From Escherichia coli (GTDB lineage: Bacteria > Pseudomonadota > Gammaproteobacteria > Enterobacterales > Enterobacteriaceae), in NCBI RefSeq assembly GCF_024700885.2, contig NZ_CP117016.1: DNA of 64,000 bases; one strand, written 5' to 3'. A program made the translations under genes and the position numbers. The notes beneath the pieces are model-generated. The model did not search any database. It was not told where the DNA came from and saw only the letters and a program-made list of their open reading frames with translations. Below, in pieces: positions 54,972 through 55,076 of the stretch (position 1 is the stretch's first letter; every line of letters starts with the position of its first letter).

Positions 54972-55076
54972 ATGAGTGCAATAGAAAATTTCGATGCCCA
55001 TACGCCCATGATGCAGCAGTACCATTTTTCTATGGTTAACCTGTTGAAATTTAGCAATAAAGTGTTTGGTAAGTAG
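54972..55076 (+). pseudogene. mutS: mutS 5' fragment: first 17 codons of DNA mismatch repair protein MutS, then out-of-gene sequence and a stop
   Basis: ATGAGTGCAATAGAAAATTTCGATGCCCATACGCCCATGATGCAGCAGTA encodes [17 protein letters not shown] (MutS N-terminus); after 55022 the sequence turns AT-rich and non-MutS (HFSMVNLLKFSNKVFGK-stop). Confidence 0.85.

Follow-up and report, generated by a model that had tools for sequence, protein, structure and literature searches.

The DNA analysed here, a stretch of 64,000 nucleotides that we call the window, is 100% identical to the minus strand of the chromosome of E. coli MLI114 (NZ_CP117013.1). Positions in the surrounding MLI114 locus are given in L001 numbering, where window = 103505 - L001 position. 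From proX to ygbA, the window consists of ordinary E. coli core genome. A TOBE-domain gene located between fhlA and ygbA (window 53874-54302, + strand) is present in MLI114, strain 1190 and strain 536 and is missing from this position in E24377A, NCTC8623 and CFSAN061761, and thus represents a small presence/absence polymorphism beside the hotspot. The native ygbA-mutS intergenic region (54686..54971, + strand) matches its counterpart in island-free E. coli at 99.7-100% identity, and the stretch before the junction is equally close to the ygbA-mutS sequence found in thousands of E. coli genomes. This region would be the home of the putative host mutS promoter and 5' UTR, and is now located upstream of a short mutS stub only.

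Direct reading of the sequence places the native mutS ATG at 54972-54974, followed by 17 MutS codons, then HFSMVNLLKFSNKVFGK and a TAG stop codon at 55074-55076. The resulting orphan open reading frame (54972..55076, + strand) is 34 codons in length and comprises the native mutS start with its 17 codons, and 17 island-encoded codons ending in the TAG. The initial annotation, made from the window alone, described this arrangement exactly, and its suggestion that a mobile element carrying recombinases has integrated after the first mutS codons is borne out by the present analysis. Up to the crossover core described below, the stub is identical to the native mutS start in the island-free strains 1190 and ST2747. 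A megablast comparison with 5,426 complete E. coli genomes showed that similarity to native mutS ends at window 55018-55021 and that the DNA beyond is rare; GC content drops from ~0.53 to ~0.31 at ~55,02x and remains low through to the window end. Host DNA ends with an 11-bp core, ATGATGCAGCA, while the last base of codon 16 and the whole of codon 17 (G TAC) are already island DNA. These island-derived bases still encode Q-Y by chance, so the match of the stub to MutS extends to codon 17.

The window holds the left 8,982 bp of the island (55019..64000, ~31% GC). The complete element is 17,837 bp in length and extends 8.8 kb past the window end to an uninterrupted mutS gene annotated in RefSeq. 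Reading of this far junction revealed a mutS of 855 codons with no internal stop, of which the first 11 codons, including a new start, are encoded by the island. In comparison to the mutS of the island-free strain 1190, all 18 nucleotide differences fall within the first 42 nucleotides and the other 2,526 nucleotides are identical. From the left junction, the initial annotation had proposed that mutS would be knocked out and the strain a possible mutator, unless the far end of the element supplied a new in-frame start. Such a start is present 8.8 kb beyond the window and adds 11 new N-terminal residues, and the reconstituted full-length reading frame that the same annotation had named as evidence against a knockout is what the right junction contains. 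The knockout reading is therefore abandoned: the full-length mutS reading frame is preserved and MLI114 is not mutS-null at the coding level. A Lys-for-Arg difference (LKLKAQ, as compared to LRLKAQ in the solved E. coli MutS chains) two residues past the HTPMMQQ motif was considered as a possible element-derived change and was rejected, since the LKLKAQ allele is also present in the island-free strains 1190 and ST2747 and is thus a host polymorphism. Some of the solved E. coli MutS chains are constructs with six extra N-terminal residues, which is indirect evidence consistent with tolerance of an altered N-terminus.

A 23-bp imperfect direct repeat, CATACGCCCATGATGCAGCAGTA, encoding HTPMMQQ(Y), has its attL copy at 54999..55021 (+ strand). 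Within 49.9 kb, the motif CAYACNCCNATGATGCARCARTA has exactly two copies, which lie 17,837 bp apart, with 0 expected by chance. A composite or tandem structure with a further att site inside the element was also considered and rejected, as no third copy of the att motif is present in the 49.9 kb and no convincing internal boundary repeats were found. The two ends of the island carry a 23-24 bp imperfect direct repeat with an 11-bp exact core. The attB was taken from the island-free strains 1190 and ST2747 and aligned with both junctions. In the order left arm / core / right arm, attB is read as GCCCATACGCCC / ATGATGCAGCA / ATATCTCAAGCTG, attL in the window as GCCCATACGCCC / ATGATGCAGCA / GTACCATTTTTCT and attR as GACCACACTCCT / ATGATGCAGCA / ATATCTCAAGCTG. 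The identical core, located at 55008-55018 in the window, corresponds to mutS codons 13-16 and is the presumed crossover region. Both of its copies lie in one reading frame, and the deduced attP itself encodes HTPMMQQY.

Island-free relatives carry exactly the attB that precise recombination predicts. Because attL and attR share the in-frame 11-bp core, precise excision would regenerate the native mutS in frame, as GCCCATACGCCC-ATGATGCAGCA-ATATCTCAAG. The integrated and the excised states are thus both predicted to encode full-length MutS, differing at most by a swap of promoter and N-terminus. The reversible mutator switch proposed initially is retained only in part: excision should restore the native mutS through the in-frame core, but the switch would not be of the on/off type, as both states encode MutS.

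The gene adjoining the rebuilt mutS is located outside the window. It encodes a 487-aa tyrosine integrase, divergently oriented and 147 bp away from the new mutS start. Its C-terminal domain belongs to PF00589 (2.3e-10), while the match to an arm-binding domain is marginal. Relatives of this integrase are abundant in Enterobacterales, and DNA related to its gene is found in 107 of the 5,426 E. coli genomes. A scan of one genome per species gave 33 loci with a homologous integrase, all from gamma- and betaproteobacteria; 32 of these have mutS divergently upstream, and in the loci from Enterobacterales the supplied mutS N-terminus is of similar type. The 487-aa integrase is, from its conserved gene neighbourhood, most likely the recombinase acting at mutS.

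A 214-aa gene directly downstream of the integrase (L001 32316-32960) has been conserved in 26 of 38 loci that were inspected, betaproteobacterial ones among them. An N-terminal HTH_17 domain (excisionase-type helix-turn-helix) was detected in 11 of 28 homologues of this protein at E <= 0.001, and the C-terminal part is uncharacterised. The best fold matches of its structural model, which is of medium confidence (pLDDT 70), are RdfS and other excisionases, although these matches are weak (E >= 0.03). This partner is a candidate recombination directionality factor. The sequence GTATACCAG is present in three exact copies in the spacer between the integrase gene and mutS (L001 30789-30845) and in two near-copies at the opposite end of the island, where two adjacent 9-bp repeats, CTGGTTTAC and ATGGTATAC, occupy window 55080..55099 (+ strand) as putative arm-type integrase sites of the P' arm. 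The position of the end repeats is conserved, and their sequence co-varies with the integrase subfamily at both ends, being GGTATAC in MLI114 and GAGCTAC/GTAGCCC in the E24377A-type elements. We infer from this co-variation that the end repeats are arm-type integrase-binding sites.

Elements that integrate in the HTPMMQQ motif of mutS, and supply their own promoter and translation start, have been described by Chu et al. 2017 (mBio 8:e02045-16; PMC5296598) in hundreds of beta- and gammaproteobacteria, among them many E. coli. The element of E24377A, listed in their Table S2 (CP000800.1:3020284, 12,690 bp; PMC5296598), could be confirmed in the sequence of that strain. The MLI114 integrase is 84% identical to that of this listed E24377A element, and the MLI114 island is therefore assigned to the same mutS-integrating class. 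It shares with this class the HTPMMQQ site, the orphaned host start, the element-supplied start and N-terminus and the intact mutS, as well as the direct repeats at the ends and the integrase adjoining mutS. The MLI114 element is not listed individually by Chu et al., as the strain was sequenced later, and its cargo (Gabija, tRNA-Asp/Val, a recombinase trio and a relaxase, described below) is not described in their study.

A simple scan for a sigma-70 consensus promoter upstream of the new mutS start gave no hit at threshold. In a laxer, family-wide scan (L001 30703-30730) the sole recurrent -10-like hexamer was TAAAAT, which 17 of 21 family members have 4 nt in front of the ATG; were this hexamer a -10 box, the mRNA of the rebuilt mutS would be leaderless. 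A sigma-54-like reading of a conserved block, TGGGGCCACATGAGCAC, noticed by eye, was dropped as its GC dinucleotide is not conserved and is GT in MLI114.

The absence of a consensus promoter raises the question of whether the element-borne control expresses mutS poorly or only conditionally, which would make the integrated state a constitutive or conditional mutator and leave excision to restore repair. The intergenic region is also common to the divergent integrase gene and packed with repeats, and altered regulation of mutS was raised as a possibility by Chu et al., who also allowed for more than one integrase lineage (PMC5296598). However, the rebuilt mutS genes of MLI114 and CFSAN061761, two divergent hosts, differ at 102 nucleotides and at only 5 amino acids, which indicates purifying selection on the rebuilt gene. 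The arrangement is also widely retained: of 5,418 E. coli genomes searched with a 301-bp attB probe, 5,234 have an uninterrupted site and ~184 (~3.4%) have it split at the core, and the latter, together with many other genera, keep the intact reading frame. The ~100-bp leader and start region of the rebuilt mutS are conserved across the family. In V. splendidus 12B01, a functional mutS was inferred for the integrated state, and the hypermutator lineages are those that had lost the element (PMC5296598). Poor expression in the integrated state is therefore improbable, and we infer both a transcribed, functional rebuilt mutS and a strain that is not a mutator.

Behind the stub, the island begins with four hypothetical genes (89, 262, 164 and 107 aa; 55366..57568, + strand; RefSeq annotation), which are co-oriented with the orphaned mutS promoter and gave no informative family matches. 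A 127-aa gene without a family match (57877..58260, + strand) lies just upstream of the relaxase gene, and to judge from its position alone it may encode a relaxosome accessory protein. The relaxase itself (393 aa; 58269..59450, + strand) is of the MobA/VirD2 type, with a match to Pfam PF03432 at E = 1e-26 and with NCBIfam MobP-type matches below cut-off. Within its gene, a tandem hexanucleotide CCTGTT of ~10 copies (window ~59092-59157, + strand) encodes a (PV)n linker, the length of which could vary by slippage. Two small genes follow (92 aa and a 104-aa putative lipoprotein; 59703..60314, + strand).

The remainder of the window is occupied by genes on the - strand. Two small genes (141 and 127 aa; 60367..61278) travel with a trio of recombinase-like genes and are also found as a pair after the trio in Pantoea allii and Citrobacter portucalensis. 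The trio consists of three adjacent, overlapping genes (430, 456 and 548 aa), two of which are in the window; with the two small genes, they occupy window 60367-64000 (- strand) and L001 37997-43138. The third member (548 aa; 61271..62917, - strand) gave no Pfam or PHROG match, and its homologues always occur after two PF00589 genes; R...HxxRH...Y-like motifs, recognised by eye in the translation, suggest that it is probably a divergent tyrosine recombinase. In the CFSAN061761 copy of the island, IS1A is inserted in this gene (L045 20517-21214), and the gene is therefore dispensable for island maintenance. The second member, a 456-aa site-specific integrase (62904..64000, - strand), is cut by the window end and matches NCBIfam NF041502 at E = 2e-65, below the cut-off of that model.

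As the trio lies within the element, it could itself be the agent that integrates and excises the island at mutS in place of the mutS-adjacent integrase, and its co-occurrence with the mutS integrase in elements of E. coli, Pantoea and Erwinia would fit such a role. The mutS element of E24377A, however, contains the integrase and lacks the trio. In Pantoea allii, the trio, the two small genes and the relaxase module are found within a mutS element with a homologous integrase, while in Citrobacter portucalensis the same trio module is accompanied by AlpA and another integrase, of the P4 type, and mutS is absent for 10 kb around. Together with the near-constant presence of the 487-aa integrase family beside mutS (32 of the 33 loci), these observations make a role of the trio at mutS very unlikely. 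The trio module rather resembles a transferable backbone in which the site-specific integrase is exchanged. The recombinases noted initially are thus present in the element, but recombination at mutS is probably not the work of those that the window contains, and the integrase outside the window is the better candidate.

In the arrangement of three adjacent, overlapping recombinase-like genes, the MLI114 trio resembles RIT elements and the gamma-mobile-trio GmtXYZ of NCBIfam. It differs from the latter in scoring 26.8 bits with the GmtY model against a cut-off of 340, and no convincing inverted repeats of the kind seen in RIT elements flank it. Unlike both of these systems, the MLI114 trio is an internal module of a larger island. 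A literature search for a named 'mutS hotspot' defence island or for three-recombinase mobilizable islands returned nothing specific.

Beyond the window, the island carries adjacent gajA and gajB genes of a Gabija system, whose products GajA (ATPase and nuclease; 660 aa, 1.8e-240) and GajB (UvrD-like helicase; 615 aa, 2.6e-198) are matched end to end in PADLOC. It also contains genes for tRNA-Asp(GTC) and tRNA-Val(TAC) together with a truncated tRNA-like sequence (Rfam 34 bits), at L001 37595-37824 (NZ_CP117013.1 1244594-1244823), likewise outside the window. The near-identical NCTC8623 element has a gap of only 347 bp at this place, where MLI114 has 597 bp, and no tRNA is annotated in it. Type IV secretion or coupling-protein genes were not found among the 19 annotated CDS of the island. 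Because Gabija genes, tRNA genes, the trio and a relaxase are carried, the gene content classes the island as an integrative mobilizable defence island. Different defence genes occur in related elements: that of E24377A has DRT3 and an ABC-three-component system, and in Pantoea there are genes for AGS_C-cyclase and PycTM, which are the Pfam families of Pycsar.

A further possibility concerns the fidelity of excision. In V. splendidus 12B01, the element takes 2 additional bp with it on excision, and hypermutators arise in this way (PMC5296598); if the MLI114 island were lost in the same imprecise manner, a frameshifted mutS and hypermutators would result. The precedent is a real one, but in MLI114 attL and attR share their 11-bp exact core in a single frame, and the attB found in island-free relatives is precisely the one predicted, so that no 2-bp scar is expected here, in contrast to 12B01. 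Excision that left mutS intact and scar-free was detected in E. coli 536, P. putida F1 and B. multivorans CF2 (PMC5296598), and the in-frame restoration predicted for MLI114 corresponds to that observed for E. coli 536. We regard imprecise excision of this island as scarcely probable. The comparison with 536 is, however, limited. The gene beside the rebuilt mutS of that strain encodes a 249-aa DUF4102 protein (L005 28977-29726) that looks like an N-terminal fragment of an integrase; this remnant has no detectable similarity to the MLI114 integrase, and the crossover point in 536 is slightly different from that in MLI114. For these two reasons, at least two integrase lineages can be said to exploit the HTPMMQQ motif. 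As the 536 remnant is unrelated and truncated, the excision experiment performed in 536 is not directly transferable to the integrase lineage of MLI114.

In S. pyogenes, the chromosomal island SpyCIM1 at the mutS-mutL locus interrupts the expression of downstream repair genes, and its integrated state is a mutator. The MLI114 island resembles SpyCIM1 as a mobile element at a mismatch-repair locus whose excision changes the state of that locus. In contrast to SpyCIM1, the integrated state in MLI114 keeps an intact mutS reading frame, and the host phylum and the target gene differ. SpyCIM1 is also phage-like, whereas the MLI114 island bears a relaxase, with only weak scattered PHROG matches and no phage module. 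A comparable strategy is that of genomic islands and prophages which reportedly insert into the 5' end of dusA and supply a replacement for it, as Farrugia and colleagues are said to have described in 2015. The dusA elements likewise recognise a conserved motif in the 5' coding part of a housekeeping gene and bring a new version of that end with them, which lets the gene survive integration; they differ from the MLI114 island in the target gene. The analogy with S. pyogenes drawn in the initial annotation is thus apt in pointing to a mobile element at a mismatch-repair locus but loose in its details, and the direct precedent is the class of Chu et al. 2017, who also cite an S. pyogenes prophage that integrates between mutS and the next gene (PMC5296598).

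The element in MLI114, isolated from human stool in Mali, differs from that in CFSAN061761, isolated from raw-milk cheese in Egypt, by 1 SNP in 17,848 bp, plus the IS1 in CFSAN061761. Of 9,237 flanking positions on the mutS side, 183 are different between the two strains, as are 19 of 664 on the ygbA side, which amounts to a divergence of 2-3%. The first host difference is the base directly after the core on the attR side and lies 13 bp from the core on the attL side. Because a near-identical element sits in hosts with 2-3% divergent flanks, the comparison shows an element that moved recently and was acquired independently by the two lineages, with its boundaries at the core. That the junction might be an assembly chimera, as was allowed for at the outset, or the element a degenerate remnant without current mobility, can be given practically no weight, as the identical left junction is present in the second, independent complete genome of CFSAN061761, the matching architecture recurs in E24377A, NCTC8623, 536 and 32 loci from other species, the near-identical copies lie in divergent flanks and the backbone open reading frames are all intact in MLI114.

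Taken together, it is highly probable that a 17,837-bp integrative mobilizable island has inserted site-specifically in mutS codons 13-16, with mutS rebuilt at its other end. The sequence comparisons establish the anatomy of the locus, the intact reading frame, the att core, the family-wide link of the integrase to mutS and the recent horizontal transfer. The attachment site of the element mimics the HTPMMQQ motif conserved in mutS, and upstream of this motif the element brings a leader of its own together with a start codon and the codons for 11 N-terminal residues. On integration, the host promoter and the first codons are orphaned as the 34-codon stub, and the full-length 855-aa mutS is rebuilt at the other end, where it would be under element-borne control. 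The catalyst would most likely be the 487-aa tyrosine integrase beside the rebuilt mutS, with the HTH_17 partner gene downstream of it as the candidate for directionality, and precise excision would return the native mutS in frame.

A more far-reaching reading, which we put forward only tentatively and consider rather doubtful, is that integration rewires two promoters and couples the MutS level and mutation rate to the activity of the element. On the mutS side, the element-borne region would serve the rebuilt gene and the divergent integrase gene in common, and is packed with putative integrase-binding repeats. On the host side, no + strand terminator was found between the stub and the co-oriented genes of the island, and the orphaned host mutS promoter may therefore read into the four hypothetical genes and then into the relaxase region. 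If true, the locus would act as a conditional rheostat in ~3% of E. coli, unlike the on/off knockout assumed in the initial annotation.

A scan of the left junction only would call strains of this kind mutS-null mutators, whereas the full locus shows an intact coding sequence in them, a point to bear in mind when mutator predictions are interpreted from draft genomes or partial windows. More generally, the arrangement shows how a protein-coding motif that is almost universal can serve a mobile defence island as its landing pad, across gamma- and betaproteobacteria, without destruction of the gene and its cost. With the insertion present in ~3.4% of complete E. coli genomes, the effect of the promoter and N-terminus swap on mutation rate is testable in ordinary strains.
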